From assembly GCA_964568385.1 (NCBI GenBank), contig CAZMQP010000003.1:1-28383 (forward strand): DNA of 28,383 nucleotides. The letters run 5' to 3'. Positions within the stretch are counted from its first letter, which is position 1, and each line of letters begins with the position of its first letter. The notes beneath the pieces were generated by a model. That model had not been told where the DNA came from. It saw nothing but the letters and a program-made list of their open reading frames with translations, and did no database searches. The stretch is from an uncultured bacterium. Its GTDB lineage: Bacteria; Eisenbacteria; RBG-16-71-46. The position numbers were made by a program, and so were the translations under genes. Of this stretch, positions 1 to 23,046 are shown piece by piece.

Positions 1-3000
1 TGAGCGGCCAGTCGAGCACGACGACGCCCCCGGCGGGCACCGCCGCCGTGAACGGCTGGCGCGCGACCTCCACGCCGGCGGCGGTCAGCACGGCGAGCAC
101 GCGGCCATCGGTCGCCGCCGCCGAGCCGGCGTTGCGGACGTGGATCGCCACGCGCATCGGGGCCCCGGCGGCCGGCTGGGCGGGGGTGATCCGGATGTCG
201 GACGGCGTGAGCTGCAGGTCGGGACCGGGCGCGCCGCGCCGGCCGCCGAGCCCGGGCTTGAAGCCCGGCTGCCGCGAGAACCCCGGCTTGCCGGCCGAGT
301 CCGGCGGACCGAACCCGCGCGGGGATCCGGGCCGGCCGGGGCCGGCCGTCGTGATCGCGGCCGGCCGGCCGAATCCGCGCGTGCCGGGGGCCGACACCAG
401 CACCGGCTTGGACGCCTCGCTGCGGCTCGCGCCCACGGTCACCGTGGCGCGCACATCGTGCGGCCCCGGCGTCACGGTCCACGGCTTGAAGCCCTCGGCC
501 ATCGCGAGGCCGTGGGCCGGCACGTCCACCACGGTCTCGCCGAGCGAGGCGCCATCCACGCTCACCGCCACGCGCGCACCCGTGATGGGCGCACGGTCCA
601 GGTTCGAGAGCTGCACCGCCACCGACAGGGGAGCGCCCGGGACGGGCGGGAACGGGCGGAGCACGATGCTGTTCGCCGAGAGCGCCAGCGCCGGCCGGGC
701 GGCCAGCGAGCGCACGCCGGGTCCGCCGACCATGGCCCGCGGCGAGGCGCGGAGGGCGGCGACGGGCTGCGACGACACGGGGCGGACGAGCGGGGTGAGC
801 GATCTCGTCGCCGAGAGCGCGCGCACCTGACCGGCCGGCGCCGCGAGCGGCGCGGGGGCGCTGCGCGCCGCCGGCGCGGGGCCGGCGACCGAGATGGTGC
901 TCGAGGCCGACGAGGTCAGCGGCTTGCCGGTCCCGCCGACACCGACGAGGTCGGCGCGCAGCCGGTAGGTGCCGGGGCGAGGCGGCGACCACTCGCTGAA
1001 GGTCACCGTGCGACGCTGGCCCGGCAGCAGCGTGCCGAGCGAGCGCGTCGAGACGACGGCGTCGTCGATGCGCAGCGTCGCCACGACGTCGCGGAACACG
1101 GTCTGGAAGGGGTTGGCGAGCGTCATGGTGACGGGCTCGCGCGCCGGTGCGCTCGAGGGCGCCGGAGCCGCGGTGACCGACCGCGTGCCGGTGGCCGTGC
1201 CGGCGGCCGGCGCCGGCGCGGGCGCGGGCGCCGGAGCCGCGGTGACCGACCGCGTGCCGGTGGCCGTGCCGGCGGACGGCGCCGGCGCGGGCGCGGGCGC
1301 CATCATCACGCTCGGCGCGCTCAAGCCCTCGATGGTGGCGAACCCGAGCGCCGAACTCGTGGCCATCATGGTGCGGGTTCCCGAGGGCGCGCTCCCGCCC
1401 GGATCGGGCGGGCTGCCCGAGGGCGTGGACGAGCTCTGGAGCATCGTGCGCGAGCCCGCGGTGCTGATCGCGGCGTCGAGGATGTGCGACTTGGGCGGCG
1501 GCTTCTGACCCGGATCCACCTGCAGGTTGCCCAGCTCGACCAGGTTCGAGCTCGGGTCCGAGTCATGGCTGCAGTACGCCTCGGCGGCGATCCCCTGCAG
1601 CAGCCCCGCCGTTCCCGGCGTCCAGCGCAGCTCGACCGACGTCTGCGCGCCCGGCGAGAGCGTGACGGGATTCGTGCGCGCCAGGTCGCTCTTGCGCGCA
1701 TCGCGCAGGTAGACCGCCGCATCGGTCGCCACCGCGCCGCCGGCGTTGAAGAGCGTCACCGGGATCGCGACCGCCTGCCCCGCCTTGACCTTGGCGGGCA
1801 GCGCGCCGATGCCGACGATCTGGAGGTCGGGCGACTGGAGCGGCAGCCCGGACGTGCCGGCGAGCCCCGGCTCCTGCTGCGGGGAGAAGAGCTCGTCGGC
1901 CGTCTGGTTGAGCCAGGAGTCGAGCATCCCGAACAGCGCGTTCTGCAGGCGCGACTTGACCGCCTGGCCGAGCCCGCCGGTCTGCGCCGCCTCGCCCAGT
2001 TCCTTCACCGCGGCGAGCGCATCGGACGCCTGCGGGGACTGCGCCAGCGAGGTCTCGAGCGCGGACATCACGCGGAAGGCGGTCTTGGGCGCCAGGCTCG
2101 TGCCGCCGCTGCGGGCACGCGACAGCAGGCCGAACTGAGAGCGCACCCCGCTCACCCACGACTGCGCCTCGCGCGACTCCGCCTTGGGGTCGTGCCACAT
2201 GCGCGCCACCTCGCCCGCGTCCGGCTGGCGCTTGAAGGCGGCGCGCTCGCCGGTGCCGCTGTCCACGGCGCTGCGCCACAGGATGCCGGCGAAGGGCGAG
2301 TCCACGCCCTGGCTGGCGCGCAGGTCGCACAGGTTGGTGAGCGCCACCTGGTAGTAGCGCGCCTGGGCGGTGTCGGAGCCGGCGGCCGTGGAGTAGCCGG
2401 TGTCGAGGATCAGCAGCTTGCCGGGCAGGTCGGCCGCCAGCCGCTGCACCAGGTCGGGCAGCCGGTCCACGCCCTCCGACGACAGGCTCCCCGGGTACCA
2501 CTCCACCGAGGCCGCCTCGACCGGCGCGGAAGCGAGCACGGTCGTCAGGTAGTCGCGCAGGCCGGCGTAGGCCTGCTGGTAGCTCTCGTCGGTGATCGCG
2601 GTGCGCGCGATCGCGCCGCGGCGGATGAGCTCGTAGTCGAACGAGCTCGGCACGAGGAGCGGCGTCGCCTGCACGCCGCTCGACGCGAGTCCCGCCAGCT
2701 CGGCGGCGCGCACGCTCTCGGCGGCGGCCTTGAGCAGCGCGGCCGCGGCCTCGGGCTCCATCGCCCCGTGGCTCGCGGGCTGGTTGAGCGGGCGCCCGAG
2801 ACGGTAGAACACGATCTGCGAGTAGGCGGGCAGTCCCGCGGCGCCCAGGTTCGCGATCACCTTGCCCACGAGCGACGCCGCGGCGTGCGGGTAGTCGGCG
2901 GGCAGCGGCTCGCCCTCGGCTGCGCCCAGCAGCGTGGGGGCGATGCGCACCTGGTTGCGCTGCGCCCACTGGCACAGGCGTGCGAGCCGTCCGGCCCCCT

Positions 3001-6972: not shown

Positions 6973-8879
6973 TTGATCCCTCCCACCAGCTCATGGAACT
7001 TCGACAGCACCTTGTCCTTGGCGCTGGTCATCACCGTGCGGGCCGCCTCCTGCGCCTCGGACTTGAGCTTCGGCACCGAGAGCATGTCCTCGGGGATGGA
7101 CGCGTAGATGTAGTCGTCGCCCATCTTGGCGCTCCACGGCGTCGCCAGCTTCCCGTCGGTCTTGGAGTCCACGACGAGGCGGTACACGTACCCGCGCGCC
7201 TCGCGGTCCATGAAGATCTTGCGCGACACCAGCGCCTCGTTGCGGGCCGGGGAGATGCTGATGTTCTCCTCGACCTCCTCCCCCAGCTTGGGATAGTGGA
7301 TCTGCACCGTGATGCGCGTGATGCCGCTCGCCTTCATCGCCTCGAGGTCGGACTCCACTTCGATGGTGCGGGGCGCGATCGGCGCCGACAGCGTCACGCC
7401 CTCCCATCCGCCCTTGACCCACGCGGGCGTGGCGGGCCACACGCGGCCGCCGCGGAAGCTCCACTGGGTCTGGTACTCGTAGGCGTCGGGGTTCGAGTCC
7501 TCGCCGCGCGCGTAGGTCACCGTGGCGTTGATGCCCTTCTCGGCCACGAACTTCTGGTCGATGGTGACGCGGTCCTCGAACGGGTTCCCCGCACTGCGCT
7601 TCTTGCGCACGTTGATCGTGACGTAGTTGGCCTGCTGCTCGAACAGGTCCTTGGCGTCGAGGTCGAGGATGAAGTGGATGTCGCGGTGCTGGAAGAACGG
7701 ATCGTTGAGATTCACGGCGGCGACGCACTTTGGATTATCGCGCACGCCGTCGTACCACGAGCCGAGGTTGCCGGTGAGCGTGTGCGGCTTCTTGAACGCC
7801 AGCCGCGAGTTGAGCGAGATGACGCGCGACTTGCTCTGGTAGGCGGACCGGATCGCCGACCGGTTGAACGTGTAGCCCGACCCCTTGCGGGCGTCGGGGT
7901 CCTTGTCCTCGGCGGCGGCCGCGGGCGGGGGCGGCGCCGGCTCGGCGATCGAGTTCAGGAACAGCTGCAGGAAGGCCTCGCGCACCTTGGCCACGCGGTC
8001 GTCCGAGACCAGTTCGTCGAACTGGAGCTTGATGACCTGCTTCTCGACGAGGAAGTCGAACTGCGACTTCACCTCGTTGTAGCTGTACGAGTAGATGCCC
8101 GAGCAGCTCCAGAATCCGCACTTGGTGCCGGTGCGGGTCCGCGTGTACTGCGAGCTGAGCGTGGTGCTGTCCTTCTCGAGCTTGGACCAGTCCACCGTCA
8201 TCGTCGCCCGCACGGCGGGCGTGAGCACGGTGTAGGCGAAGTGGAGGTCGAGCGACACGTCGCTGATGGACCGCTGCCTCTCGAACGTCGCCGCCAGGAG
8301 CTGGGCCCCCTCCGACGACAGGCGCGCTGCGGCGGCGGCCTTGCCGCCCGGCACGAGCGGCGCCCGGCCCGAGTTGACCATGGCCGTGGTGAGCTTGTTG
8401 TCGGACATCGTGGCCGAGATGATCTGGAAGCTGCCCGACTCGCCGTGGGCCTCCATCGGCACGACGCCCATGAGCTCCGCCTTGGCATCCACCTTCTTGA
8501 GCTTCTCGGCGAGCTCGGTCTCCTGGGCCGGCGTCAGCCCCCACTCCATCAGGAAGTGCATGAGCCCGCCGTTGATGCCGCCCGCGTCGGCACGCGCCTC
8601 GGTGGTGAACTTGAGGAACAGGAACTCCGGCACGCCGTCCGCCCGCCGCGACAGGCGCAGGTTCGCGGGCAGGTAGTAGTACTGCTTGGTCTTCGCATCC
8701 CCGGTGGCGCCGGCGACGGCGATCAGCGTGATGGGCGTGTTGTCGCCGAGCGTGATCGTGAGCCGGTTCTCGTCGTCGAGCACCACGGCCCGCGCGGGCG
8801 CCGCCAGGTGCATCCCCATGACCGTCGTGACCACCGCCAGCGCCGCCCGTGCGGCCCTGCGGATCCGTGCCGCTCCCAT
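6969..8879 (-). CDS. g5: exported protein of the unnamed paralogue family, subtype B (636 aa)
   Basis: The track ORF starts at 9314, but its first 145 codons overlap g4 and the g4-g5 spacer. ATG 8879 has a strong SD (GGAGGGAGG) and opens a signal peptide (..HLAAPARA|V). An in-frame ATG at 8951 is an alternative start. Motifs QYYYLPANLRL, GVPEFLF, SGRAP, VNLNDPFFQHR, WSFRGG. Confidence 0.88.
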   Translation of the reverse strand: MGAARIRRAARAALAVVTTVMGMHLAAPARAVVLDDENRLTITLGDNTPITLIAVAGATGDAKTKQYYYLPANLRLSRRADGVPEFLFLKFTTEARADAGGINGGLMHFLMEWGLTPAQETELAEKLKKVDAKAELMGVVPMEAHGESGSFQIISATMSDNKLTTAMVNSGRAPLVPGGKAAAAARLSSEGAQLLAATFERQRSISDVSLDLHFAYTVLTPAVRATMTVDWSKLEKDSTTLSSQYTRTRTGTKCGFWSCSGIYSYSYNEVKSQFDFLVEKQVIKLQFDELVSDDRVAKVREAFLQLFLNSIAEPAPPPPAAAAEDKDPDARKGSGYTFNRSAIRSAYQSKSRVISLNSRLAFKKPHTLTGNLGSWYDGVRDNPKCVAAVNLNDPFFQHRDIHFILDLDAKDLFEQQANYVTINVRKKRSAGNPFEDRVTIDQKFVAEKGINATVTYARGEDSNPDAYEYQTQWSFRGGRVWPATPAWVKGGWEGVTLSAPIAPRTIEVESDLEAMKASGITRITVQIHYPKLGEEVEENISISPARNEALVSRKIFMDREARGYVYRLVVDSKTDGKLATPWSAKMGDDYIYASIPEDMLSVPKLKSEAQEAARTVMTSAKDKVLSKFHELVGGIK

Positions 8880-8901
8880 GTGATCGCCTCCCTCCACTCG
8901 G

Positions 8902-8919
8902 CCGGATCCGCGGATCCGG
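8902..8919. other. Perfect 18-bp palindrome CCGGATCCGCGGATCCGG in the g4-g5 spacer
   Basis: Read directly from the sequence; it lies just upstream of the g5 ribosome-binding site. Function unknown. Confidence 0.5.
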
Positions 8920-8947
8920 GAGAATCGTTGCACTGCCTCGAACGGCC

Positions 8948-10684
8948 TCATGGCAGCTCGTCCACGAAGACCAGCCCGCTCGACAGCTGCCGCTTCGCCG
9001 TCACCCGCTGCCCGCCCGCGAGCTGCCATGTCAGCATCACCTCGTAGGCGGGCTGGCCGAGCGGCAGCGTGATCTCCAGCTGCTTGCGGTCGAAGGGCTC
9101 GTCCGGCCGCACCACCATCTGGGGGCGGCGGCGCTCGCCGAAGAATGGGTAGTCGATCTCGACCACCACGGCGCGCACGCCGCGCGCGCGCAGGGCGTCG
9201 GGGTCGCCGGCGAGCTGGATGACATGGCGCTCGTAGGGCGCGAACAGGTCGATCATGGGCGCCTCCGAGCGGATCCAGTCCGTGGCATGCACGCCGCCGC
9301 CGCGGAAGCTCCACCGCGTCCGGTAGTCATAGCCCAGCCACGCCACGCGGTCCCGGTCATCGTTCCAGCCGTAGACCATGCGCAGCCCGGCCGTGGAGCC
9401 GCTGGCGTTGTGGCGGTCGAGCACGAGCTCGCGCAGCGTCTGCTCGCCGTTCGAGTGGGTCTTGCGCATCGTGACGGTGATGCTGTTGATGACGCTCTGC
9501 AGCTCGGGCAGCAGCGCGCCGTCCACGCCCACCTGCACCTCGCGCTGCTGGAACGCCGCATCCCCCAGGTTGACCGTGCGGAAGTGCCGCGGGTCCGAAC
9601 CGTGCGTCCGCTCGAAGTCGCCGAGGTTGAACGCGATCGAGTGATGCCGCTGCACCGAGGCACGGTGGTCGAACGTCATCACGCTCCGGCCCTCGGACCG
9701 GACGTCGCGGATCTGGTAGGCGAGCTCGGCGCCGTAGCCCAGCATCTTGCGGCTCGACATCGCGCTCCCCGAGCCGAACATCGTGCCGAGGGCGTCCATG
9801 AGCCCGCCCCGCTCGGCGGGCGGCACGCGCTCGGGTTCGACGGGCTTGAACAGCAGGTCGAGCAGGCGGCCGTACACCGTGTTCAGCAGCCCCTCCGTGA
9901 CGGGGTCGTTGCCCGCCGTGCGCAGCTCCACTGCCTGGGTGCGCCGCAGTTCGTCAATGGCGACGCCGATGTCCGCGCTCACGAAGTAGGCGGTGGCTCC
10001 CGCCGAGAACGTCTTGCTCTTGCGCACCTCGGACCAGTTCACCGTCAGGTCGGCGCGGTAGGCGTCGGTGAGGCCGGTGAAGGTGAGGTCGAAGAGCAGG
10101 GACACATCGGGCGTGGCCATCGCGAACGACTTGAGCAGCAGGGTGGCCCGCTCGGGATCGAGATCGAACGACAGCGCGAGGCGGTTGCCCTCGAGCACCG
10201 GCGCCCGGCCGGTGGCGAGCGCGTGCCGGGACGACGACTCGCGCCCCGGCTGCAGGACGGACGAGACGAGCGTGTAGCGGCCCTCGCTGCACACGATCGG
10301 GCCCCGCAGGCTGACGCGCGGGTTCCCGACCTGCTGGCGCAGGGCAGCGCCCGCCTCCTGCACCATCGCCGCTGGGGTCTCGAGCTCGACCAGGAACGTG
10401 AGCACGCCGCCGCCGCGGGCCTCGGTGATGCTCGAAGCGCTCGCGCTGTCGCCGCTCGTGTTGATGACGTAGCGCACGAACGAGAACTGCGGACGGCCCT
10501 GCTCGTCCTCGGCGAGCCGGACCGCCGCGGGCAGATGGACGTAGGTGAGGCTGTCGGTGGTGAGCGGGAAGCACCACAGCCCGCCCGCGCGCACGCCCCG
10601 GTCCACGAGCACCGGCTGGGCGAGCGCCGCCGGCGCGCACGCCAGCAGGACGCCGAGGCTGCAGGCGAGGGTGGTGCGCCTCAT
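8948..10684 (-). CDS. g4: exported protein of the unnamed paralogue family, subtype A (578 aa)
   Basis: ATGA overlap with the g3 stop. Signal peptide ..APAALA|Q, with a possible lipobox LLAC. Motifs TYVHLPAAVRL, GRPQFSFVRYV, TGRAP, VNLGDAAFQQR, WSFRGG and C-terminal VDELP. Confidence 0.9.
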   Translation of the reverse strand: MRRTTLACSLGVLLACAPAALAQPVLVDRGVRAGGLWCFPLTTDSLTYVHLPAAVRLAEDEQGRPQFSFVRYVINTSGDSASASSITEARGGGVLTFLVELETPAAMVQEAGAALRQQVGNPRVSLRGPIVCSEGRYTLVSSVLQPGRESSSRHALATGRAPVLEGNRLALSFDLDPERATLLLKSFAMATPDVSLLFDLTFTGLTDAYRADLTVNWSEVRKSKTFSAGATAYFVSADIGVAIDELRRTQAVELRTAGNDPVTEGLLNTVYGRLLDLLFKPVEPERVPPAERGGLMDALGTMFGSGSAMSSRKMLGYGAELAYQIRDVRSEGRSVMTFDHRASVQRHHSIAFNLGDFERTHGSDPRHFRTVNLGDAAFQQREVQVGVDGALLPELQSVINSITVTMRKTHSNGEQTLRELVLDRHNASGSTAGLRMVYGWNDDRDRVAWLGYDYRTRWSFRGGGVHATDWIRSEAPMIDLFAPYERHVIQLAGDPDALRARGVRAVVVEIDYPFFGERRRPQMVVRPDEPFDRKQLEITLPLGQPAYEVMLTWQLAGGQRVTAKRQLSSGLVFVDELP

Positions 10685-12510
10685 CGCGCCGCACCCCGTG
10701 CCGCGGGAGAGGGCGGGACCAGGAACAGGTAGTCCGACTCGAGCAGCGACAGCTTCTCCTCATGGCTCCCGCTCGCCGAGTGCCACGACACGCGGTACGC
10801 CACCGGCGAGTCGCGGTCCACGTAGAGCGCCACGCGCGTGGTCGGCGTGGCATCCGCCGCCCGCAGGGTGGCCTTGCGCTCTAGCTTGGGCTTGCCGGCC
10901 TGGAGGATGGCGAACTCGACGACGCCGGTGTTGACGCCCTGGGTGGCGAAGCCCTGCCGGTCGGACTCGATCTCGACGATCCGCTTGGTGAGCGGCGGGA
11001 CCAGCGAGATCGCCGCGTCGGAGCTCTTGATCCACTCCTCCTCCTTCGGCGGCACCGAAAGCGTCGGTCCGCCGCGCAGGCTCCAGCGCACCTGGTACTC
11101 GTACTGGGTCCAGTCCTTGCCCGTCAGGCCGAGGCGCGGGAACGCGATGGTGGCGGTGGTGCGGCCCGCCTCGAGATCGGCGCGGCTCAGCTGGATGGAC
11201 TTGGTGAACGCCGGACGGTCGGCGTAGGTCTTGCGGAAGCTCACCGAGACGAAGTTGATGGTCTCCTGGAACGCATCCAGGAAGTCGCCGTCGAGCTGGA
11301 AGTAGACCGGCCGGAACTCGAACGCCGCGTCGGCGAGATTCACGATGCGGAAGCAGCGGCTGTCCTCCGCCAGCTCCCGATAGAGCCCGCCCAGGTTGCC
11401 GGACGTGCTGACCGGCACGCGGATCGACGAGTTCTTGTTCAGGACGAGCGTGAACGTGCTCTGCCGGATGTCCTTGCGGTTCTTGAGCACCCACTGGTCG
11501 TCCGAGACGTAGTTCTGGTTGCCGCTGCCCGAGAACAGCTTGGACAGGAACCCCCGCGACTGCCGGCCCTGGAGCTGCCCGCGCTCGACGGCGACCTCGG
11601 TGGCGGGCACCTTCGACCAGCCGCTCGAGTCGTCGAACATGAGCGTGGTGAGCTTGTCGGTCACGAGCTGCAGGATCCCCGCCATGTCGTCGGACTTGAT
11701 CCCCAGCCCCGCGCTGCGATCGACCACGTCGATCTTGAGCGTGCCGTTGCGATGCAGCTGGTCCACGATGTCGCGCACCTGCCGGCGGGTGTAGCCCTTC
11801 TGCGCGTTCGCGATCTGGCTGAAGTGCTCGTAGACCGCCGAGACGTCGGCCGTGACGCGGGCGTTGTAGCCCTGCACCAGCGCCTCGTAGTAGCCGTGCA
11901 CCGAGACCGACACGTCCGAGGTGGGACCGGAGAGCGAGTTCCACAGCAGGGTCGCGCCCTGCGGCGAGAGGATGGCCGCGACCACGGCGCGCGAGCCGGG
12001 GGTGAACGGGGCGCGCCCCGACGCCACCACCGAGCGCGTGAAGCCCCCCTCGCCCTTGTTCGAGAGCACCGCCGAGACCACCTCGAACGAGCCGGTGCCC
12101 TCGACGCCGTCCTTGGTGGCCTGCATGAGCGGGACCGGGCCCATGATGCGGACGTTGCCCGCGCTCTTGCGCAGCTCCGCCTCCACTTTGGCGAGCCGGT
12201 CCTGCGGCAGCGTGAACTCGACCAGCGCGTGCAGGAGCCCGCCGCTCGTCCCCCCCTGCGCGTCCACGTACTTCAGGCACAGCAGCTCGTAACTGCCGTC
12301 CTCGCGCTGCGCGAGCCGCGGGTACTGGGGCACGTAGTAGTAGGCGGTCGGGTCGCCGGAGTCCTGCAGCAGCTGCACCCCGAGCACGACGCGCGAGCCC
12401 TGGTCGTAGTTCACGATCGCCCGGGCGGGGGCGGCGCTCAGGGACAGCGCGGCGCTCGCGACAAGCGCGGCGGTGCGGTACGCGTGCTCGATGCGGCGGA
12501 ACCGGATCAT
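10681..12510 (-). CDS. g3: exported protein of the unnamed paralogue family, subtype B (609 aa)
   Basis: Signal peptide ..SAAPARA|I. Motifs AYYYVPQYPRL, GGLLHALVEF, SGRAP, VNLADAAFEFR, WSLRGG. Confidence 0.9.
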   Translation of the reverse strand: MIRFRRIEHAYRTAALVASAALSLSAAPARAIVNYDQGSRVVLGVQLLQDSGDPTAYYYVPQYPRLAQREDGSYELLCLKYVDAQGGTSGGLLHALVEFTLPQDRLAKVEAELRKSAGNVRIMGPVPLMQATKDGVEGTGSFEVVSAVLSNKGEGGFTRSVVASGRAPFTPGSRAVVAAILSPQGATLLWNSLSGPTSDVSVSVHGYYEALVQGYNARVTADVSAVYEHFSQIANAQKGYTRRQVRDIVDQLHRNGTLKIDVVDRSAGLGIKSDDMAGILQLVTDKLTTLMFDDSSGWSKVPATEVAVERGQLQGRQSRGFLSKLFSGSGNQNYVSDDQWVLKNRKDIRQSTFTLVLNKNSSIRVPVSTSGNLGGLYRELAEDSRCFRIVNLADAAFEFRPVYFQLDGDFLDAFQETINFVSVSFRKTYADRPAFTKSIQLSRADLEAGRTTATIAFPRLGLTGKDWTQYEYQVRWSLRGGPTLSVPPKEEEWIKSSDAAISLVPPLTKRIVEIESDRQGFATQGVNTGVVEFAILQAGKPKLERKATLRAADATPTTRVALYVDRDSPVAYRVSWHSASGSHEEKLSLLESDYLFLVPPSPAARGAAR

Positions 12511-12535
12511 CGTGGAGGATCCCCCTGGCGGCGCC

Positions 12536-13723
12536 TCAGCGGATGGGACGGACCCCGGTGGCGGCCGCCGGCGCGGGCGTGGTCAGGTCGAGGACGTCCA
12601 GCCAGTCACGACCCGCCCGCCAGCCGCCCTGCGTCGAACTCCCGTCGGGCCGGACCTCCGCCACCCGGTAGCGGTAGGGTCGGTCCAGCCGAACGGCGAC
12701 CGGGAAGCGAAGGCTCGTCTGGTATACGTCCGGATGAGCCCGGGCGAACACGGCCTGCAGCCGCACCGGGCGGCCGGCCACGGACTCGGCCTCCACTTCG
12801 ACCTGCTTCTCGTACAGATCGGGCCGCCGGTTGTCGCGGAAGTCGTAGCAGTACACGTCCATGGCCGCGTAGCCGGTCCGCGTCCCGGCGTCGAGGTCGA
12901 CGCGCCGCATCAGGTCCGGGAAGCGGCGGGCATCCACGTGGATCGGGATGACCCCCGCGGCGACCACCCGCCGGAGCATCGAGTCGGCGCCGGTGGCGCC
13001 CGCCGCGGACTCCGCGGCCAGTTCCCGGCCGAGCGCCTCGGCCAGCATCGGCGGCGCGTCCACGAGGCCCCACGGCTCACGCGCCACCCGCCCGTCGGCC
13101 ACCACCGCATAGGCGAGGCTCATGGACAGCAGCCCCTGCTCGAAGGCGGCGCGCAGCGCCTGGGCGGTGAGCGAGTCCAGCCCCACGCTGAACACGCGCT
13201 CCCTCCAGTAGCCCTCGCCCACCGGGCCCTCGTGCTCGCGGCTCGCGAGGAGGCGTCCTCCCGGCACTCCATGGCGGACGGTGTCGGCGGAGGCGCCGAT
13301 CGAGATGAAGAGCAGTGCGGCGCTCAACCGGCGGATGGGCAGCGGCCGCAGCTCGGCGGCGCGCCCCGCTGGCCCGAGCTGCCGGGCACAGGACGCCAGC
13401 ACCTCGGCCGGGTGGGCCGGCAGCTCCACGCGGATCGTCAGCAGGCTCTTGTGGAGCGTGAGCCCGCGATCGCGCGCCAGGGCGTTCCCGGTGTAGCGCA
13501 TGTCCACGAAGCTCAGATCGGGCCGGCCATCCTCGGCCGTGACGAGCCGCATCTCCGCGGGTGCGTAGTGGAAGAGGTCGGCCCGCTGGTCGTCCGCGAA
13601 GACGGTCACCCCGGCCACCACCCGGCGCGAGGCCAGGTCGGGCACGGCGCCGGCCGGCGCGGCGAGCACGAGCAGGAGCAGCGCGAGCCGGGCGCTCCGG
13701 CGAATCCGTGAGCAGCCGCGCAC
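12536..13723 (-). CDS. g2: exported, shortened and divergent member of the same family (395 aa)
   Basis: GTG start 3 nt after the g1 stop. Signal peptide ..LLLLVLAAPAGA|V. Motifs VFADDQRADLFHYAPAEMRL..DGRPDLSF, ELRPLPI and RRVDLD, then one C-terminal beta-rich unit (PYRYRV..DG..W). Confidence 0.82.
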   Translation of the reverse strand: MRGCSRIRRSARLALLLLVLAAPAGAVPDLASRRVVAGVTVFADDQRADLFHYAPAEMRLVTAEDGRPDLSFVDMRYTGNALARDRGLTLHKSLLTIRVELPAHPAEVLASCARQLGPAGRAAELRPLPIRRLSAALLFISIGASADTVRHGVPGGRLLASREHEGPVGEGYWRERVFSVGLDSLTAQALRAAFEQGLLSMSLAYAVVADGRVAREPWGLVDAPPMLAEALGRELAAESAAGATGADSMLRRVVAAGVIPIHVDARRFPDLMRRVDLDAGTRTGYAAMDVYCYDFRDNRRPDLYEKQVEVEAESVAGRPVRLQAVFARAHPDVYQTSLRFPVAVRLDRPYRYRVAEVRPDGSSTQGGWRAGRDWLDVLDLTTPAPAAATGVRPIR

Positions 13724-13726
13724 GGC

Positions 13727-15820
13727 TCAGCGCTCCAGCCGCGTGCCCAGCGACTGCTCCAGCTGGCGGCGCCCGATCGGCATCCACGACTTGTCGCCGG
13801 GCACCCACGCGGCGTCGCCACCCACGACGGCGCCGTCCTTCATGGTGAGCGAGAGCCGGAACTCGAACAGCGGCCCGGAGCGGCCCGCCGCCCGCTCCAG
13901 CCCGAACACCGGCCCGAGCGTGAAGTCCTTGCCGTCCGCATCCACGACGAACGAGCGCGTCCGGGTGGCTTCGCCCTGGGGATCGAAGTGCCTCGAGCGC
14001 ACCTCCACCAAGATGTGCTGGGCGCCCGATTCGGCCAGCGGCGTCAGCGAGCGGAACGTGAACTGCGACGAGCCGGCGGCCGACACGCCCCCGGTCAGAC
14101 CGGCGATGGCGTTCGCGCCGCACTCCCGGCACGACGCGTCCACGGTGTAGTCGATCCAGATCTTCTGGGCCTGTGCGTCGATCCAGAACGGCACCGAGGC
14201 GGCGCTCCAGCGCACCTGGCCGCCCGGCGGGACCCGCGTCTCCCCCAGGCTCCACGAGTTCACGACCGGCGGGGCGCCGTCGGCGACGCGCAGGGCGTGC
14301 AGGTAGCGCAATGTGACCGGGTAGGGCGTCGGGTTCTTCCAGCCGGTGCGCTCCCACCGGAACGGGCCGAACGTGCCGTAGTCCGCCAGCCGCATGTGGA
14401 TGGGCACCACCCTCGGCCCGAGGCCGTTGCCCGTCGGGCGGTAGATCACGCTGCCGCTGATGCCGACGTTCTCGATCAGCGCCTCCTGGATGAAGTCCTT
14501 GGTGCGCTCGTCGGTGATCCACGACACGTCGAGCTGACCGGCGACATCGGTGAGTCCGTTGACCGAGATGCGGTTCGCCGGAACGCTGTAGCGGCCCAGG
14601 TCGTCCGACAGCGAGACGGTGAGCGAGTCGATCGGCAGCGGCCGCAGTTCACGGAAGGGCATGCCCCGCGCCTTGGCGTGCGCCCGCACGATCTGGACCG
14701 CGACGCCCAGGTCGCGCGCCCCGATGCCGCCATCGAGGCGCGCCGACATGAGCACCTCGCCCGCGGCCCCCGGGGCCGCGGCGGAGTAGACGCTCCGGAG
14801 TGCGTAGCCGTCCGCCTGGTCCCACTTGAGCGCGTAGTCGTGGGGCAGGAAGTAGAAGATCCCCGAGGACGGCTCCTGGTCCGGATAGACCTCCGGGTAC
14901 ACGTTGAGCACGCGGGTCAGGTCGAGTCGGATGTCCTCGGTGCGGACATCGGCGAACGTCGGGAGCGGCAGGGCGCCCGGCCCGCGGGCGCCGCGGCTCG
15001 CGTCCGCCGGGGTGAGCCCCAGCGTGACCGAACGCGCCTCGAGCAGCCGCGCGGTGGGCAGCGCGCGCGTGGCCGTGCCGGCCTGGGTCTCGGCCGGCGG
15101 CTTGGTGACGGGCAGGACCGACCGCGTGGCCGTGATGGCCCGCGTCCGCGGGGCGGTCGTGGCCGGCGCCGGCGCGGGCGGCGAGGTGGATGCGGAGGGT
15201 GCGATGCGCACGGTGCTCGCCGGCACCACCATCGACGGCGTGGGCCCGAGCTCGGCGGTCCGGCCGACCGGCTGCGGTGCGATCGTGACCACGAAGCCCT
15301 CGCCGGAGGCGGCCGTCCTCGACCACTCCTTGCCCAGCCGGAAGAGGCGCGTGTAGCTCGCGGTGCGGCGCCCGGCGGCGGCGACGCTGACCCTCAGCAG
15401 CGCGGAGGGCGGCGGCACCACGCCGGGCTCCGACTCGAAGGTGAGCGTCAGTTCGCCCGACCCCTCGGCGATCGAGGCGGGCTCCGGCATGACGACCCCC
15501 GCTTGCCGCCGCCGGTCCGCATTCAGGAGTTCGCCCCACAGCCGCGCCCCCAGCAGGCCGTCATGGCTGACCCGCACCACCAGGCGGCGCGGCGCGTCCT
15601 CGTCCACGACCGCTCGGGTCACATGGCCCTTGAGCTCCCCTCCGAGCAGGCTGCCCGCGAGCGACTCGAGACCCGAGCGCACCTCATCCGCGGGCGGCAG
15701 TTCCCTGCCCTCGAGCGCGCCGGGGGCCGGCGCCGGCCGCGCCGGGACCGGCGCGAGCGAGCACATCGCGAGCACCAGGGCGAGGGACGCCGCCCATGGG
15801 CGGAGGGACCGAGGTCGCAT
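13727..15820 (-). CDS. g1: exported protein with an N-terminal beta-rich domain, a Pro/Thr/Ala linker and a divergent copy of the family domain (697 aa)
   Basis: ATG 15820 (codon 24 of the track ORF) has GGAG upstream and opens a signal peptide MRPRSLRPWAASLALVLAMCSLAPVPA. The C-terminal half has VYPDQEPSSGIFYFLPHDYAL, ELRPLPI and a terminal beta-rich unit (FEFRL..DG..W). Confidence 0.8.
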   Translation of the reverse strand: MRPRSLRPWAASLALVLAMCSLAPVPARPAPAPGALEGRELPPADEVRSGLESLAGSLLGGELKGHVTRAVVDEDAPRRLVVRVSHDGLLGARLWGELLNADRRRQAGVVMPEPASIAEGSGELTLTFESEPGVVPPPSALLRVSVAAAGRRTASYTRLFRLGKEWSRTAASGEGFVVTIAPQPVGRTAELGPTPSMVVPASTVRIAPSASTSPPAPAPATTAPRTRAITATRSVLPVTKPPAETQAGTATRALPTARLLEARSVTLGLTPADASRGARGPGALPLPTFADVRTEDIRLDLTRVLNVYPEVYPDQEPSSGIFYFLPHDYALKWDQADGYALRSVYSAAAPGAAGEVLMSARLDGGIGARDLGVAVQIVRAHAKARGMPFRELRPLPIDSLTVSLSDDLGRYSVPANRISVNGLTDVAGQLDVSWITDERTKDFIQEALIENVGISGSVIYRPTGNGLGPRVVPIHMRLADYGTFGPFRWERTGWKNPTPYPVTLRYLHALRVADGAPPVVNSWSLGETRVPPGGQVRWSAASVPFWIDAQAQKIWIDYTVDASCRECGANAIAGLTGGVSAAGSSQFTFRSLTPLAESGAQHILVEVRSRHFDPQGEATRTRSFVVDADGKDFTLGPVFGLERAAGRSGPLFEFRLSLTMKDGAVVGGDAAWVPGDKSWMPIGRRQLEQSLGTRLER

Positions 15821-16020
15821 GCACGGACTCCGAGCGCACCGCGCGTTCGAGGGGCGGCGGCGCCACGCGCCGGACGAGCCCCACGGCATGCGCTCGCCTC
15901 GGTCGCTGCACCGCCTCGAACCCCCTTACGTCCGAGCCGGGCGAACCGAACACGGGGCCGGGCGGGCCGGTGGCGCAGGGGGGCGCGCCCCACCCGCGCC
16001 GCCCGCGCCGCGATCCGCGG

Positions 16021-16509
16021 TCAGTCCCCTTCCGCCGACTTCCTCAGCGAGACCGCGTTGATGCAGTAGCGCAGGCCCGTCGGGGCCGGGCCGTCGGGGA
16101 ACACGTGCCCGAGGTGCGCGTCGCACACCTGGCAGGTCACCTCCACGCGCTGCATGCCGTGGCTCTCGTCGAGCACGTACCCGACCACGCCGGCGGTGAG
16201 GGGCTCGGTGAAGCTCGGCCAGCCCGAGCCGCTCTCGAACTTGGTGGTCGCATCGAACAGCAGCGTGCCGCAGCACACGCACGCGTAGCGGCCCGGTTCG
16301 AACAGGCTGCACATCTCGGATTCGAACGGCCGCTCGGTGCCGCCGCGCCGGGCCACCTGGTACTGCGCGTCGGTCAGTTGCGCGCGCCACTCGGCATCGG
16401 ACTTCTCGAGGCGCCGCGGCGGCGGCACGTTGCCGTGCCGCGCCCACGCGAGCACGGTGGCCCAGCGAGGGGGCGCGTCGGCCGGGGGACGGCGGGTGAT
16501 GTCGGTCAT
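16021..16509 (-). CDS. msrB: Peptide-methionine (R)-S-oxide reductase MsrB
   Basis: GTERPF, two CxxC zinc motifs (CVCC, CQVC), SGWPSF, AHLGHVFPDGP, RYCIN; SD AAGGAG. Confidence 0.97.
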   Translation of the reverse strand: MTDITRRPPADAPPRWATVLAWARHGNVPPPRRLEKSDAEWRAQLTDAQYQVARRGGTERPFESEMCSLFEPGRYACVCCGTLLFDATTKFESGSGWPSFTEPLTAGVVGYVLDESHGMQRVEVTCQVCDAHLGHVFPDGPAPTGLRYCINAVSLRKSAEGD

Positions 16510-16588
16510 GGCAGGGCTCCTTCCTTCGGGAGGCCGCGGCCGCCCGGGCTCCCTCTACGCCGGAGCGGGCGTTCCGTGACGCCCGCCG

Positions 16589-17611
16589 TCAGCGCGCGTA
16601 CGGGCTCACCTGCACGCCCGCCTCCTCCTCGGCCGCGTCCGCCCACGTGCGCACGATCGAGCCCGCCGGGTCGATGGAGTGGATCGCCTCGACGCTCTTG
16701 CCGGCCTGCCAGAACTCGCCGCGGCCCTTGGGCACGCGCAGCGACTTGCGCAGCGTGGACAGCGAGCGCATCGCGAAGAACGTGCGCATCAGGTGCTTGG
16801 TGCGCGGCTGCCGGAGCATCCAGCGCTCGAACGCGTTCGCCTTGAGGCCCAGACGGCGCACCGAGGGCGAGTCGAGCACGGCCACCGGCACGCCGGTGAT
16901 GCGCTCGGTCATCACCACGTCGCGGGCGCGCGCGTCGAGTAGCGCCTGCTTGTAGTCGTCGCTCGCCGAGCACTCGGGCGTGGCGATGAACCGCGTGCCG
17001 CACTGGACGCCGGCATAGCCCATCTTGAGCGCGTCGATGAACCCGCGGGCGTCGCCCACGCCGCCGGCGCACACGACCGGCAGCGCGAAGGGGGCGAGTT
17101 CGTCGAGCAGCGCGCGCGGGTCGCGCGGCCCGGCGTGCCCTCCGGCACGCGCGTTCACGGCGATCAGGCCGTCGGCGCCGCCGTCCTTCGCTTTGGCGGC
17201 CCACTTGGCCTCGGTCACATCGTGGTACACGACGCCGCCCACGGCGTGCGCCTTCTCGACCACCCAGCGCGGGTCGCCGAGCGAGGTGACGAAGAACCGC
17301 ACGCCCTCCTCGAGCGCGATGTCCACCCAGCGGCGCATCTGCTCCAGGTAGCGCTTGGACGACTTCTCGATGAGCGCGTTGAACCCGATCGGCTTGGTGG
17401 TGCGCGAGCGGATGAGCCGGAGGCCCTCGCGGAAGTCGTGGCCGAGCACGTAGGTGAGCGTGAGCGGCTGCACCACGCCGATGCCGCCGGCCTCCGACAC
17501 GGCCGCCACGAGCTCGGGGTCGCTGCACGGGTACATGGGGCCGCAGATGAGCGGCACGGCGATGCCGGCGTGCCGCGTGAGCGGCGTGTCGAGCGGAGTG
17601 GCCGGACTCAT
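16589..17611 (-). CDS. Nitronate monooxygenase / FabK-like FMN-dependent oxidoreductase
   Basis: LVAAVSEAGGIG, AGGHAG, VVCAGGVGD, GVQCGTRFIATPEC match the NMO/2-nitropropane dioxygenase family pattern. ATGA overlap with the upstream gene. Confidence 0.9.
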   Translation of the reverse strand: MSPATPLDTPLTRHAGIAVPLICGPMYPCSDPELVAAVSEAGGIGVVQPLTLTYVLGHDFREGLRLIRSRTTKPIGFNALIEKSSKRYLEQMRRWVDIALEEGVRFFVTSLGDPRWVVEKAHAVGGVVYHDVTEAKWAAKAKDGGADGLIAVNARAGGHAGPRDPRALLDELAPFALPVVCAGGVGDARGFIDALKMGYAGVQCGTRFIATPECSASDDYKQALLDARARDVVMTERITGVPVAVLDSPSVRRLGLKANAFERWMLRQPRTKHLMRTFFAMRSLSTLRKSLRVPKGRGEFWQAGKSVEAIHSIDPAGSIVRTWADAAEEEAGVQVSPYAR

Positions 17612-19906: not shown

Positions 19907-21106
19907 ATGAACACGACCCCGCCCGACCTCGCACGCCTGCGCATCGACCGCAGCGAGCCCCCGCCCGGCCCGCGCGGAGGCACCCGCTTCGCCGTCCCGG
20001 CCGGGATCGGGGTGGTGCTGATCGTGCTCGCGGTCGTGCTGTGGCCGCGCCTCTTCCCGGGCGCGATCGAGGTGCGCACGGCGGTCGCCGCCGCGACCGG
20101 CGGCGCCGCGTCGCCCGGCGGCGGCATCAGCGCCAGCGGCTACGTGGTGGCCCGCACCAAGGCCTCGGTGTCGGCCAAGGTGCCGGGGCGGCTCGCCTAC
20201 CTCGGCGTCGGCGAGGGCTCGGTCGTGCGCCGCGGCGAGGTGATCGCGCGGCTCGAGAACGACGACTTCCGCGCGGCGGTGGACGCCGCCGAGGCGCGGC
20301 TCCGCCAGCTGACGATCGAGCGCGACCAGGCCGAGCGCGACCTCGAGCGGGCGACCCGGCTCCACGAGCGCCGCCTGCTCTCGGACGCCGAGCTCGAGAC
20401 CCAGTCGGCGCGCCTGCGCTCGCTCGCCGCGCAGGCGGACGCCGCGCGCGCACAGCTCGCGCTGAGCCGCGCCAGCCTCGACAACACGATCGTGACCGCC
20501 CCGTTCGACGGCACCGTCCTGCGCAAGGACGCCGAGGTGGGCGAGTTCGTCGCCCCCTCGACCGCGGGCGGCGGGCTCACCCGCAGCGCGATCGCCACGA
20601 TGGCCGATCTGCGCACGCTCGAGGTCGAGGTGGACGTGAACGAGGCCTACATCTCGCGCATCCGGAACGGGCAGTCGTGCCGCATCACGCTCGACGCCTA
20701 CCCCGACACCTCGTTCGCGGGTCGCGTGCGCCAGGTGGTGCCGACCGCCGACCGGCAGAAGGCGACCGTGCAGGTCAAGGTCTCGATCCTCGACCGCGAC
20801 CGCCGCATCCTGCCCGAGATGGGCGCCAAGGTGGAGTTCGCGCCGCCGGGCGACTCCGAGTCCGAGACCGGGCCCGTCCCGCCGCGCCGCGTGCTGGCCC
20901 CGGCGGCGGCGGTGGTGGGCAGCGGGAGCGACGCCCGGGTGTGGGTGGTGTCCGGCGGGCGCGCCGCGGCGCGAACGGTCGAGACCGGCGTCGCGCGCGG
21001 GGAGCAGGTCGAGATCCGTTCCGGGCTGAGCGGCGGGGAGAGCGTCATCCTGTCGCCGCCGCCCGGGCTCGAGGACGGGGCGCGCGTGCGCGTCCGCGGC
21101 AGCTGA
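19907..21106 (+). CDS. Efflux periplasmic adaptor / membrane fusion protein (MacA/HlyD-like)
   Basis: N-terminal TM anchor, ASGYVVAR, lipoyl-like halves flanking a coiled coil, IVTAPFDGTVL, LEVEVDVNE. Confidence 0.93.
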   Translation: MNTTPPDLARLRIDRSEPPPGPRGGTRFAVPAGIGVVLIVLAVVLWPRLFPGAIEVRTAVAAATGGAASPGGGISASGYVVARTKASVSAKVPGRLAYLGVGEGSVVRRGEVIARLENDDFRAAVDAAEARLRQLTIERDQAERDLERATRLHERRLLSDAELETQSARLRSLAAQADAARAQLALSRASLDNTIVTAPFDGTVLRKDAEVGEFVAPSTAGGGLTRSAIATMADLRTLEVEVDVNEAYISRIRNGQSCRITLDAYPDTSFAGRVRQVVPTADRQKATVQVKVSILDRDRRILPEMGAKVEFAPPGDSESETGPVPPRRVLAPAAAVVGSGSDARVWVVSGGRAAARTVETGVARGEQVEIRSGLSGGESVILSPPPGLEDGARVRVRGS

Positions 21107-21155
21107 CGGAACCCAGGACCCCGCCCGCCGGCGGGGAACGGCGAAGGAGGGCTCG

Positions 21156-21827
21156 ATGGCGCTGGTGACGGTGCGGGACGTGCACAAGGAGTATCGCCGC
21201 GACACCCAGGCGGTCCCGGTGCTGGCCGGGCTCACGCTGGAGATCGCCGAGGGCGACTTCGTCGCCCTGATGGGTCCGTCCGGCAGCGGCAAGACCACGC
21301 TGCTCAACCTGATCGGCGGCATCGACCAGCCGACCGCGGGCGAGGTCGAGGTCGGCGGCAGGTCGATCGGGCGCCTCAAGCCGCGCGAGCTGGCGCGCTG
21401 GCGCTCGCGGCACATCGGCTACATCTTCCAGCTCTACAACCTGATCCCGGTGCTGACCGCGATCCAGAACGTCGAGCTGCCGCTGCTGCTCCAGAAGATG
21501 AGCGGCAAGGAGCGGGTCGAGCGCGCCACCCACGCGCTCGAGAACGTCGGCCTCAAGGACCGGCTCAAGCACTACCCGCGCCAGCTCTCGGGCGGGCAGG
21601 AGCAGCGGGTGGCGATCGCGCGGGCGCTGGTGAGCGACCCGACGCTGCTGCTCGCGGACGAGCCGACCGGCGACCTCGACCGCAAGTCGGGCGAGGAGAT
21701 CCTCGGCCTGCTCGAGCGGCTGAACAAGGAGTTCAAGAAGACGATCGTCATGGTCACGCACGACCCGCACGCCGCCGAGCGCGCGCATCGCGTGCTGCAC
21801 CTCGACAAGGGCGTGCTGTCCAACTGA
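21156..21827 (+). CDS. ABC transporter ATP-binding protein (MacB/LolD-like)
   Basis: Walker [10 protein letters not shown], signature LSGGQEQR, Walker [11 protein letters not shown]-loop VTHD. Confidence 0.97.
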
Positions 21828-21840
21828 GCGCGGGGAGCCC

Positions 21841-23037: not shown

Positions 23038-23046
23038 GGAGCGACC

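Follow-up and report, generated by a model that had tools for sequence, protein, structure and literature searches.

The stretch of DNA analysed here, which we refer to as the window, comprises positions 1 to 28,383 of contig CAZMQP010000003.1 (assembly GCA_964568385.1) from an uncultured bacterium of the Eisenbacteria. Its left-hand part holds eight consecutive minus-strand genes, numbered g1 to g8 in the direction of transcription (Table 1), the first six of which form a conserved cassette encoding related exported proteins. A sequence-only reading of the window had proposed that the eight genes form an operon of exported proteins, six of them paralogues of one unnamed domain family, whose products co-assemble outside the cytoplasm. 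The window has a G+C content of 72%, and G+C by codon position tells real genes from many spurious open reading frames: at the third position (GC3) it is 0.88-0.96 in the eight genes, as against about 0.4-0.7 in other frames. Gene starts were set by ATG or GTG codons, upstream purine-rich boxes and the N-termini of orthologues. This gave intergenic gaps, from g1 to g8, of 3, 25, -4, 68, -1, 28 and 25 nucleotides (nt), the g5/g6 gap becoming -4 if a GTG start is used, and bore out the gene row and spacing proposed beforehand. A terminator scan found no terminator-like sites or hairpins on the minus strand within the row. All eight N-termini carry a basic stretch followed by a hydrophobic core (Kyte-Doolittle 10-residue maximum 2.1-3.2), and an AxA-type site is present in most. 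These signal-peptide calls, made by direct reading together with the Kyte-Doolittle heuristic, agree with the claim that all eight proteins are exported.

Four of the proteins, g3 to g6, match one another by BLASTP across nearly their full length (1e-20 to 6e-50). The nearest pairs are g3/g5 (6e-50) and g4/g6 (4e-46 and 3e-44), with g4 against g3 at 5e-43, which gives the row an alternating layout that we denote A1-B1-A2-B2. To place the two remaining proteins we used profile-profile comparisons (hhalign) built from orthologues taken out of related loci. Over its first ~180 residues g2 shares homology with the N-terminal subdomain of g3-g6 (97.7%, E 2.5e-12; 97.8%, E 8e-13 on trimmed profiles); a C-terminal domain of its own, with a conserved DVYCYDF motif, follows. 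In g1, residues ~295-455 match the g2 N-terminus at 72% (E 3.4e-5) on untrimmed and 92.8% (E 4e-7) on trimmed profiles. Because the direct signal between g1 and g3-g6 is weak (12.5%), the membership of g1 in the family is transitive, via g2. After its signal peptide the protein has an N-terminal domain, a linker rich in Pro, Ala and Thr, the shared subdomain and a beta-rich C-terminal part. The sequence-only reading had all six proteins sharing an N-terminal motif, here written 'YYxP-RL'. This holds for g2-g6 by hhalign and BLASTP, but in g1 the motif stands in mid-protein, at about residue 320. The subdomain that bears it is present in all six proteins, as well as in a short paralogue (X) and in leaderless forms described below, and it lies at the mature N-terminus except in g1. 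The further co-linear blocks pointed out in g3-g6 (DVS, NLG, VNL-D-F-R, N-V-V-RK and WS-GG) were confirmed as invariant columns of a 32-sequence alignment (D199-V-S, N372, V390/D394/F397/R400, N419/R426/K427 and W476). Alignments of g1-g6 revealed no conserved catalytic motif.

The large paralogues also share a variable insertion site. In g6 it is occupied by an Ala/Glu/Lys-rich helical insert of ~150 residues, and g6 orthologues split at this site in tblastn. Inserts differ by lineage among the g3/g6-type representatives P0156, P0190, P0199, P0224 and P0230 (900-1180 residues): they may be Lys/Asp-rich tandem repeats ('NSALIDKEA...'), TPR-like helices or Ser/Glu-rich low-complexity sequence. 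Their length runs from 0 to >400 residues in an otherwise conserved protein, and family representatives with inserts reach 800-1180 residues. Such variability, confined to one site, suggests an exposed tip on a conserved core. Separately, P0197 has a 400-residue extension beyond the conserved C-terminal 'VDELP'.

The family is large. More than 730 relatives of g3 were found at 58-92% identity, none with a Pfam domain, and those with names are all hypothetical. A g3-g6 profile search of 1.84 billion cluster representatives returned 1925 members (clusters at 50% identity), 522 of them below 1e-30. A locus scan using one genome per species yielded 80 loci, and the mapping of g1-g8 covered 81. The loci span at least nine phyla, including Eisenbacteria, Acidobacteriota, many Bacteroidota, Gemmatimonadota, Verrucomicrobiota, Planctomycetota, Spirochaetales, delta-proteobacteria, Myxococcota and others, together with a Gallionellaceae genome. 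The closest lies in a Candidatus Eisenbacteria genome (89%), and cultured carriers among the Bacteroidota include Flavivirga sp. 57AJ16, Tenacibaculum xiamenense and Flavitalea sp. BT771.

In 42 of the 81 loci g1-g2-g3-g4-g5-g6 is complete and in order; the remaining loci are collinear pieces, mostly cut by contig ends, with two exceptions that read g3-g5-g4-g4. Orthologues of g1 lie 5' of g2 in 53 loci (median identity 32%), g2 has orthologues in 55, g4 gave 75 locus hits (median 48%) and the median for g5 is 45%. Across phyla the median identity to the window is thus 45-49% for g3-g6 and 32-34% for g1-g2, rising to 58-66% between Eisenbacteria, Acidobacteriota and the Gallionellaceae genome. 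For exported proteins, this conservation of g3-g6 is unusually high. Each slot of the cassette keeps its own orthologue, which implies that the duplications are older than the spread of the cassette and that the copies are not redundant. Since identical gene order recurs in dozens of unrelated genomes, the cassette is not a product of chance, and the neighbourhood comparison that had been proposed beforehand came out strongly positive. Flanking genes differ even among relatives that are 86-87% identical, so that the conserved unit is the cassette and not its neighbourhood. This synteny is the best available indirect evidence that the products of g1-g6 act together. From slot-by-slot orthology and translationally coupled spacing we infer, as the best-supported statement of this analysis, that the subunits are made together and take distinct positions in one assembly.

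Several loci depart from the common pattern. Two close relatives of the window (L082 and L083, g3 86-87% identical) have RibD_C and acetyltransferase genes upstream of g1, and not the nitronate monooxygenase, DUF4442 and HD-domain genes found here, which suggests that the cassette moved or that its neighbourhood was rearranged within the clade. Ten loci from Saprospiraceae and Lewinella (L041, L042, L046, L052, L059, L060, L062, L065, L066 and L068) show neither g1 nor g2 in the 10 kb upstream of g3 and carry additional g5-like and g6-like copies, a variant organisation. In four loci labelled Binatia, Armatimonadota, Limnocylindrales and Dormiibacterota (L008, L009, L014 and L016) the g3 orthologues are 63-65% identical to that of the window; being as close as those of true Eisenbacteria and closer than those of most phyla, they could reflect recent transfer or mis-binned contigs of metagenome-assembled genomes.

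These data bear on the view that there is no single complex, and that the paralogues are exported proteins acting independently, for example as binders or enzymes that capture polymers or mediate adhesion, and clustered by tandem duplication and co-regulation. Adhesins and polymer-degrading loci commonly show a beta-sandwich-rich architecture and a CARDB neighbour, both described below. Near some of the loci lie SusC/SusD-like genes (so called from N-terminal sequence only) or a Pfam-confirmed fucosidase, and the extra copies in Saprospiraceae would also fit. However, independent paralogues normally gain, lose and reshuffle members, whereas here order and slot orthology are kept across phyla. 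No catalytic motif is conserved, and the flanking genes vary between genomes, so we regard this explanation as very doubtful.

Searches of profile libraries (Pfam 2025, NCBIfam June 2026 and PADLOC) and PDB sequences returned nothing significant for g1-g7, in keeping with the proposal of one unnamed family with six members. None of g1-g8 matched an anti-phage component in PADLOC-DB at E up to 0.01. Nor did anything significant emerge when the PDB was searched, by sequence or by profile, with g3, g6, the g3, g1 and g7 families, g8, the family of its N-terminal domain and the accessory proteins Y, Z and g9 (see below). When the members of the g3-type, g1-type, Y and Z alignments were scanned one by one against Pfam (E up to 1), only scattered noise and weak peptidase hints were obtained. 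A PapD_C match in g1 was sub-threshold (E 0.039; 14.7 bits against a cut-off of 22.8) and occurred in 1 of 24 orthologues. We rejected a prohibitin match of g6 (E 0.16) as compositional coiled-coil similarity. The name 'VWA domain-containing', which UniProt gives to a g3 orthologue (P0023, A0A849SEV9), was likewise set aside: neither g3 nor 31 relatives has a VWA Pfam hit, the g3 model is not of the beta-alpha-beta type, and 'DVS' reads as DxSxS in g3 alone, the second Ser not being conserved.

An AlphaFold2 model of g3 (mean predicted local distance difference test score, pLDDT, 75.7) can be divided into four. Residues 35-195 form an alpha/beta subdomain, much of it with a pLDDT of 80-91. It is followed by two strands of ~21-23 residues (200-222 and 352-372), between which lie helices and a disordered stretch (223-350), and the protein ends in two well-predicted beta-sandwich domains (385-600). 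Against the PDB, Foldseek matched the full-length model only to proteins with tandem immunoglobulin (Ig), fibronectin type III or arrestin-type beta-sandwiches, at template modelling (TM) scores of ~0.1-0.26; we take the matches to complement C3/C5, cytokine receptors, arrestins and the pilin Spy0128 as generic Ig-like similarity and not as kinship. The N-terminal half modelled alone (pLDDT 69.5) had no PDB match below E 0.014, the value of its best match, ASF1, which we rejected. Among the predicted viral structures of BFVD this half matched A0A7S7YF07, an uncharacterised protein of 417 residues from Medusavirus stheno T3, a giant virus of amoebae (E 4.4e-8, probability 1.0; 276 columns, 15% identity, TM 0.25-0.29), the sole strong structural match in the libraries searched.

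The sequence-only reading had offered a multi-component pore-former as one candidate for the assembly. Neither g1-g7 (E up to 0.1) nor 32 homologues (E up to 1) have a Pfam or NCBIfam match to MACPF/CDC, and no MACPF/CDC protein is among the PDB matches listed by Foldseek for the full-length and N-domain models of g3. Aerolysin/ETX-MTX2 and leukocidin/alpha-haemolysin were found neither in Pfam, by PDB sequence nor by Foldseek, and the gasdermin domain neither in Pfam nor by Foldseek; the Foldseek negatives are soft, because the models are only of moderate confidence. A protease or protease-like gene adjoins the family only in sister cassettes, which carry Z or Y, and in a Paracoccus relative. 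A multi-component beta-pore-forming toxin, in which a ring is built stepwise on a target membrane and the long beta-hairpin arm inserts, would account for co-expressed, diverged paralogues in fixed order. The two long strands predicted to flank a potentially refoldable helical segment would suit it, and peptidase partners could activate a protoxin. Bacterial gasdermins adjoin their proteases, much as distant relatives of the present family adjoin a protease and NTPase (nucleoside triphosphatase) module. Nevertheless, no fold or sequence match leads to MACPF/CDC, aerolysin/ETX, leukocidin, gasdermin or ClyA-type toxins. The segment between the strands is charged, ranges from nothing to >400 residues, is an Ala/Glu/Lys-rich helix in g6 and not amphipathic, and is thus unsuited to span a membrane; for a toxin, such conservation across phyla would also be unusual. 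None of these data shows a pore, and we consider the pore-former distinctly unlikely.

Downstream of g6 the genes vary. Enough sequence lies beyond g6 in 50 loci; there g6 is followed by a gene that we call Z in 27, by g7 in eight and by neither in 15. Z (~470 residues, two subtypes) fills this slot in most other lineages. Its 22 aligned sequences have an invariant HExxH, a downstream Y-G-x-D, a His, a Glu and a further Glu. Two of the 22 match zincin families in Pfam weakly (Aspzincin_M35, E 0.0026; Zincin_1, E 0.26) and none has a PDB match, so Z bears a weak resemblance, at the level of sequence, to HExxH metallopeptidases. Bacteroidota loci have two further genes, X and Y, inserted between g4 and g5 (L039:13486-14854, L071:13524-14899, L079:13518-14932 and 28 more loci). 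X is a short paralogue of ~225 residues that consists of the N-terminal subdomain only. Y (~230 residues) has H39 and N164-C165-x-D167 invariant in 25 sequences; a profile comparison aligns its NC motif to the catalytic NCN of PPPDE1/2 at a non-significant E of 1.1-2, and two of 25 members match Peptidase_C97 (best E 0.0093). It may thus weakly resemble PPPDE/permuted-papain Cys-His peptidases. The claim that the set contains no enzyme therefore stands for the window, and needs amending for the sister cassettes, which carry these peptidase-like genes.

The genes that follow g6 in the window belong to its own clade. The g7 family comprises nine clusters among 5.8 billion proteins (40-98% identity), all of one Eisenbacteria-centred clade, and has no Pfam or PDB sequence match; the suggested role of g7 as a helical partner is not supported, g7 lying outside the core and its slot usually holding an unrelated HExxH protein. 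We found no Pfam or PDB sequence match of g7 to an alpha-pore former of the ClyA/Hbl/Nhe type, and direct reading revealed no long hydrophobic segment. The idea that g7 is a divergent Z was rejected (hhalign 1.2%). In g8 a conserved N-terminal domain of ~400 residues is followed by CARDB (PF07705; residues 501-580, E 4.4e-14, 53 bits against a cut-off of 22.7), which assigns it to that family, and by beta-rich repeats parted by Pro/Ala-rich linkers. Its N-terminal part likewise has nine clusters in one Eisenbacteria-centred clade, CARDB being the sole annotation on homologues. Full-length orthologues measure 1027-1142 residues; g8 also occurs in L006 and L007, and in inverted orientation in L012. 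Neither g8 nor the family of its N-terminal domain has a PDB match, and no glycan-binding or hydrolase domain could be shown. Its proposed role as a glycan-binding anchor is not borne out, and g8 is not part of the core.

In two related loci a further gene, g9, follows the g8 orthologue (L084:13099-15945 and L085:13877-16657; 926-948 residues), so that the operon probably extends beyond the left edge of the window, as had been suggested. The protein has a signal peptide, beta-rich N-terminal domains, a low-complexity linker and a C-terminal half of ~450 residues that ends in ...YVTNL or ...YSAGL. Neither Pfam nor the PDB yielded a match to it, and nothing comparable was seen in Bacteroidota cassettes. 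Its C-terminal half reads as beta-barrel-like in residue alternation, and g9 may be an outer-membrane component encoded just past the left edge.

By tblastn, distant relatives of g3-g6 were found on plasmids of two Alphaproteobacteria, Pararhizobium qamdonense (p2) and Paracoccus sp. SMMA_5 (pNSM5a). The first gene of the Pararhizobium operon is g1-like, with YYYEP in mid-protein, and the second bears a weak likeness to g2, its BLASTP E against g5 and g6 being about 0.005; next come four large paralogues, with two proteins of unknown type interspersed. The Paracoccus row holds five large paralogues and one short. None of these proteins has a signal peptide, and all nine large ones begin with 'ML', ~10-14 residues ahead of the strand that follows the cleavage site in exported forms. 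That leaderless forms start just before this same conserved strand implies that the mature N-terminus matters. The alignment of leaderless proteins is divergent (mean column identity 31%). By hhalign it matches the exported family over 514 columns (99.9%, E 3.6e-35), which establishes full-length homology.

Directly ahead of the Paracoccus row lie genes for an EAD1-trypsin, an EAD1 protein and a STAND-type NTPase; within it a PLD-like gene stands beside the short paralogue, and a tyrosinase and a second trypsin-like protease gene lie at its end. EAD1 is defined in PMC7159879 as an adaptor coupling effectors to NTP-dependent conflict systems; text searches of that paper and its sequel gave no mention of the g3-g6 family. 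These observations raise the prospect of a new superfamily with two uses: a Sec-exported device against other cells and, within the cytoplasm, an effector complex that a STAND NTPase, an EAD adaptor and a protease would control. The former would comprise this window and most members from the FCB (Fibrobacterota, Chlorobiota, Bacteroidota) and PVC (Planctomycetota, Verrucomicrobiota, Chlamydiota) groups and Acidobacteriota, and the latter the alphaproteobacterial plasmids. We regard this broader scheme as rather unlikely. If true, it would give bacteria the equivalent of a complex that attacks membranes as complement does or that delivers effectors, with a fold that has no solved relative and one structural relative in a giant virus.

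Table 1. Positions of genes and other features in the window, with the two plasmid-borne leaderless operons
Feature	Location	Strand	Description
g1	13727-15820	-	697 aa; GC3 0.94
g2	12536-13723	-	395 aa; GTG start; signal peptide
g3	10681-12510	-	609 aa; signal peptide; paralogue type A1
g4	8948-10684	-	578 aa; signal peptide; paralogue type B1; overlaps g3 end by 4 nt
g5	6969-8879	-	636 aa; signal peptide; paralogue type A2; GGAGG ~8 nt upstream
g6	4783-6969	-	728 aa; signal peptide; paralogue type B2
g7	3360-4754	-	464 aa; exported; probably mostly helical, judged by sequence character
g8	5-3334	-	at least 1109 aa; signal peptide; truncated at left window edge
Non-coding stretch 5' of g1	15821-16588	-	768 nt; presumed operon promoter region
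Nitronate monooxygenase-like gene	16589-17611	-	next minus-strand gene upstream of g1
Pararhizobium operon (L086)	NZ_CP119567.1 821721-838785		8 'hypothetical' genes
Paracoccus operon (L088)	NZ_CP102353.1 about 90504-116356		at least 10 genes

The surroundings of the row are unremarkable. Promoter and Rfam scans found neither a sigma-70 consensus nor an Rfam match in the stretch upstream of g1, which we presume to hold the promoter. To the right of g1 lie ordinary genes: nitronate monooxygenase-like, DUF4442, HD-domain, YCII, a MacAB-type ABC efflux set, thioredoxin-reductase-like and ETF-QO. The efflux set (19907-24216, plus strand) comprises an HlyD-family adaptor, an ABC ATPase and two permeases of the FtsX/MacB type. 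It runs divergently from the minus-strand genes between 16589 and 19794 and has no link to the cassette in other genomes. Between positions 3001 and 9000 (g4-g7) the G+C content falls to 0.68-0.69, from 0.72-0.77 in the flanks, with AT skew down to -0.23. As GC3 stays at 0.88-0.95 there, the dip reflects amino-acid composition and not clearly foreign DNA; the g4-g7 proteins are conserved and rich in Lys, Glu, Asn and Asp. We rejected an origin in a mobile element, given that there was no phage match and that the cassette is flanked in the window by housekeeping genes.

In light of these analyses, we tentatively favour, at somewhat less than even confidence, a reading in which g1-g6 are non-interchangeable subunits of one hetero-oligomeric extracytoplasmic assembly that serves as a conflict or attack device and is matured by hydrolases. 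The analysis establishes the genes, their paralogy and fixed order, the lack of known domains and the pattern of accessory genes; co-assembly, location and function of the g1-g6 products are all inferred. The assembly would form once Sec has exported its subunits, either in the periplasm, at the cell surface or beyond it. The 'YYxP-RL' subdomain, shared by g1-g6, X and the leaderless proteins, is the obvious candidate for a docking element, and it probably mediates contacts between subunits. The four large paralogues (A1-B1-A2-B2) would make up the body, each with a long beta-hairpin arm, a variable exposed helical insert and two beta-sandwich domains, and g1 and g2 would be specialised start, cap or adaptor subunits. 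Accessory hydrolases would mature or load the assembly, Z in most lineages and Y beside X in Bacteroidota, while in this Eisenbacteria clade they would be replaced by g7, g8 and probably the downstream g9. The use as a conflict or attack device, whether a membrane-attacking complex or a scaffold that delivers effectors, is less certain than the assembly itself. What points toward it are the recurrent hydrolase partners (Z, Y, PLD and trypsin), the fact that an enzyme and a short paralogue occur as a pair, and the EAD1/STAND neighbourhood of one distant relative.

A number of observations weigh against this interpretation. Beyond generic beta-sandwiches, Foldseek gave no similarity to pore-formers, toxin translocons, pilin assemblies or secretion components with these moderate models, and the helical insert, read directly, is charged or of low complexity, without the alternation of MACPF/CDC membrane hairpins. 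Cross-phylum conservation of 45-65% is atypical for toxins and surface antigens and would better fit a housekeeping-type envelope machine. Since the window has neither Z nor Y, protease-dependent maturation may not apply here, and 15 of the 50 loci have neither Z nor g7 after g6. Finally, the STAND/EAD1 link is seen on one plasmid only, and the Pararhizobium operon is without it.

The alternative that g1-g6 polymerise into a structural component of the envelope or surface, be it a filament, a sheath, a ring or a lattice in which minor and major subunits have set places, has to be weighed on the same evidence. In this clade g9 would anchor it in the outer membrane or form its exit pore, g8 would be an accessory exposed at the surface, and the logic would be that of chaperone-usher or type V pili, or of a periplasmic ring. 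Conservation very high for exported proteins is what one would expect of machine parts, and all subunits carry Sec signal peptides of the signal peptidase I type, like chaperone-usher pilins. The tandem C-terminal beta-sandwiches reach Foldseek probabilities of 0.94-0.98 to the Streptococcus major pilin Spy0128, at TM scores of only 0.14-0.26. The conserved free N-terminal strand could serve strand complementation, and peptidase partners could cut off a blocking segment, as in type V pili. A variable exposed insert is consistent with a surface structure, and the apparent barrel-like alternation in the g9 of relatives would suit an anchor. Hard to reconcile with such a role are the leaderless homologues of the same architecture in the alphaproteobacterial cytoplasm, one set of them beside an immune-type NTPase module, which argue against a purely pilus-like or envelope-ring role for the whole superfamily. 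Usher, chaperone and pilin families in Pfam all remained below threshold: we found no usher or fimbrial family, PapD_C was sub-threshold only, and type V pili (FimA/Mfa) gave no Pfam match, the Bacteroidota orthologues having, by direct reading, AxA/SxA-type signal peptides without a lipobox Cys. In addition, g9 is confined to two related loci, and no obvious major subunit stands out among the paralogues. High conservation, the lack of a pore-former fold and the charged variable insert together argue against a classical pore-forming toxin and keep the envelope assembly, unlikely as we judge it, a serious contender.

On either account the cassette appears to be undescribed. Full-text literature searches, whose reach did not extend to subscription-only papers, found no description of it. 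We place it outside the known kinds of system because family tests failed or gave no clear outcome for everything except the CARDB of g8, none of the annotation libraries searched has a model of it, RefSeq calls its relatives 'hypothetical' and the literature gave no description; the models behind the fold comparisons are of moderate confidence. With six to nine genes in an order kept in at least nine phyla, and a core without relatives in Pfam, NCBIfam, PADLOC or the PDB, the cassette is a sizeable piece of conserved 'dark matter' of environmental bacteria. The orthology, slot by slot, of four full-length and two partial paralogues points to a defined multi-subunit machine, and such machines have usually proved to be secretion systems, pili, toxins or immune effectors. 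The leaderless branch beside EAD1/STAND hints that weapons sent out of the cell and immunity within it may be connected. Cultured carriers (Flavitalea sp. BT771, Tenacibaculum xiamenense, Flavivirga sp. 57AJ16, Pararhizobium qamdonense and Paracoccus sp. SMMA_5) make the system directly testable, and one solved complex would probably yield new folds and a function for a widespread family of ~1900 clusters.

Four kinds of known system invite comparison. Like complement C6-C9 (MACPF), LukS/LukF and Hbl/Nhe, the cassette encodes co-expressed, diverged, exported paralogues that would have fixed roles, and protease partners occur in its sister cassettes. The likeness is one of logic only: there is no similarity of sequence or fold, the components number six to nine here and two to five there, the cassette is far more conserved across phyla, its putative refolding segment is charged and variable, and leaderless cytoplasmic versions exist. 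Chaperone-usher (Pap/Fim) and type V pili (FimA-E, Mfa1-5) are, like the cassette, encoded by operons of at least five paralogous beta-sandwich subunits with Sec signals. Such pili have a fixed order of subunits along the fibre and cannot assemble without a terminal strand, and type V pilins need a maturation protease. Unlike them, the cassette reaches the Pfam thresholds for none of the PapD chaperone, usher, fimbrial and FimA/Mfa families, and its proteins have no lipoprotein signal, are 2-4 times larger, have a non-sandwich N-terminal half and occur in leaderless forms.

A third comparison is with conflict systems built around STAND NTPases and EADs. The Paracoccus row has the layout of sensor, adaptor, protease and effector set out in PMC7159879. 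The cassette of the window, by contrast with these systems and with gasdermins, is exported and lacks NTPase, EAD and trypsin genes; the likeness is seen on one plasmid, and there is no gasdermin fold. Finally, AB/ABC-type toxin complexes (anthrax PA with LF/EF, and Tc toxins) likewise combine a conserved core with variable downstream genes, which in the cassette are the two subtypes of Z, or g7 and g8. This likeness extends to pairs of an enzyme and a short paralogue within the row, with X by Y in Bacteroidota and the PLD-like gene by the short paralogue in Paracoccus.

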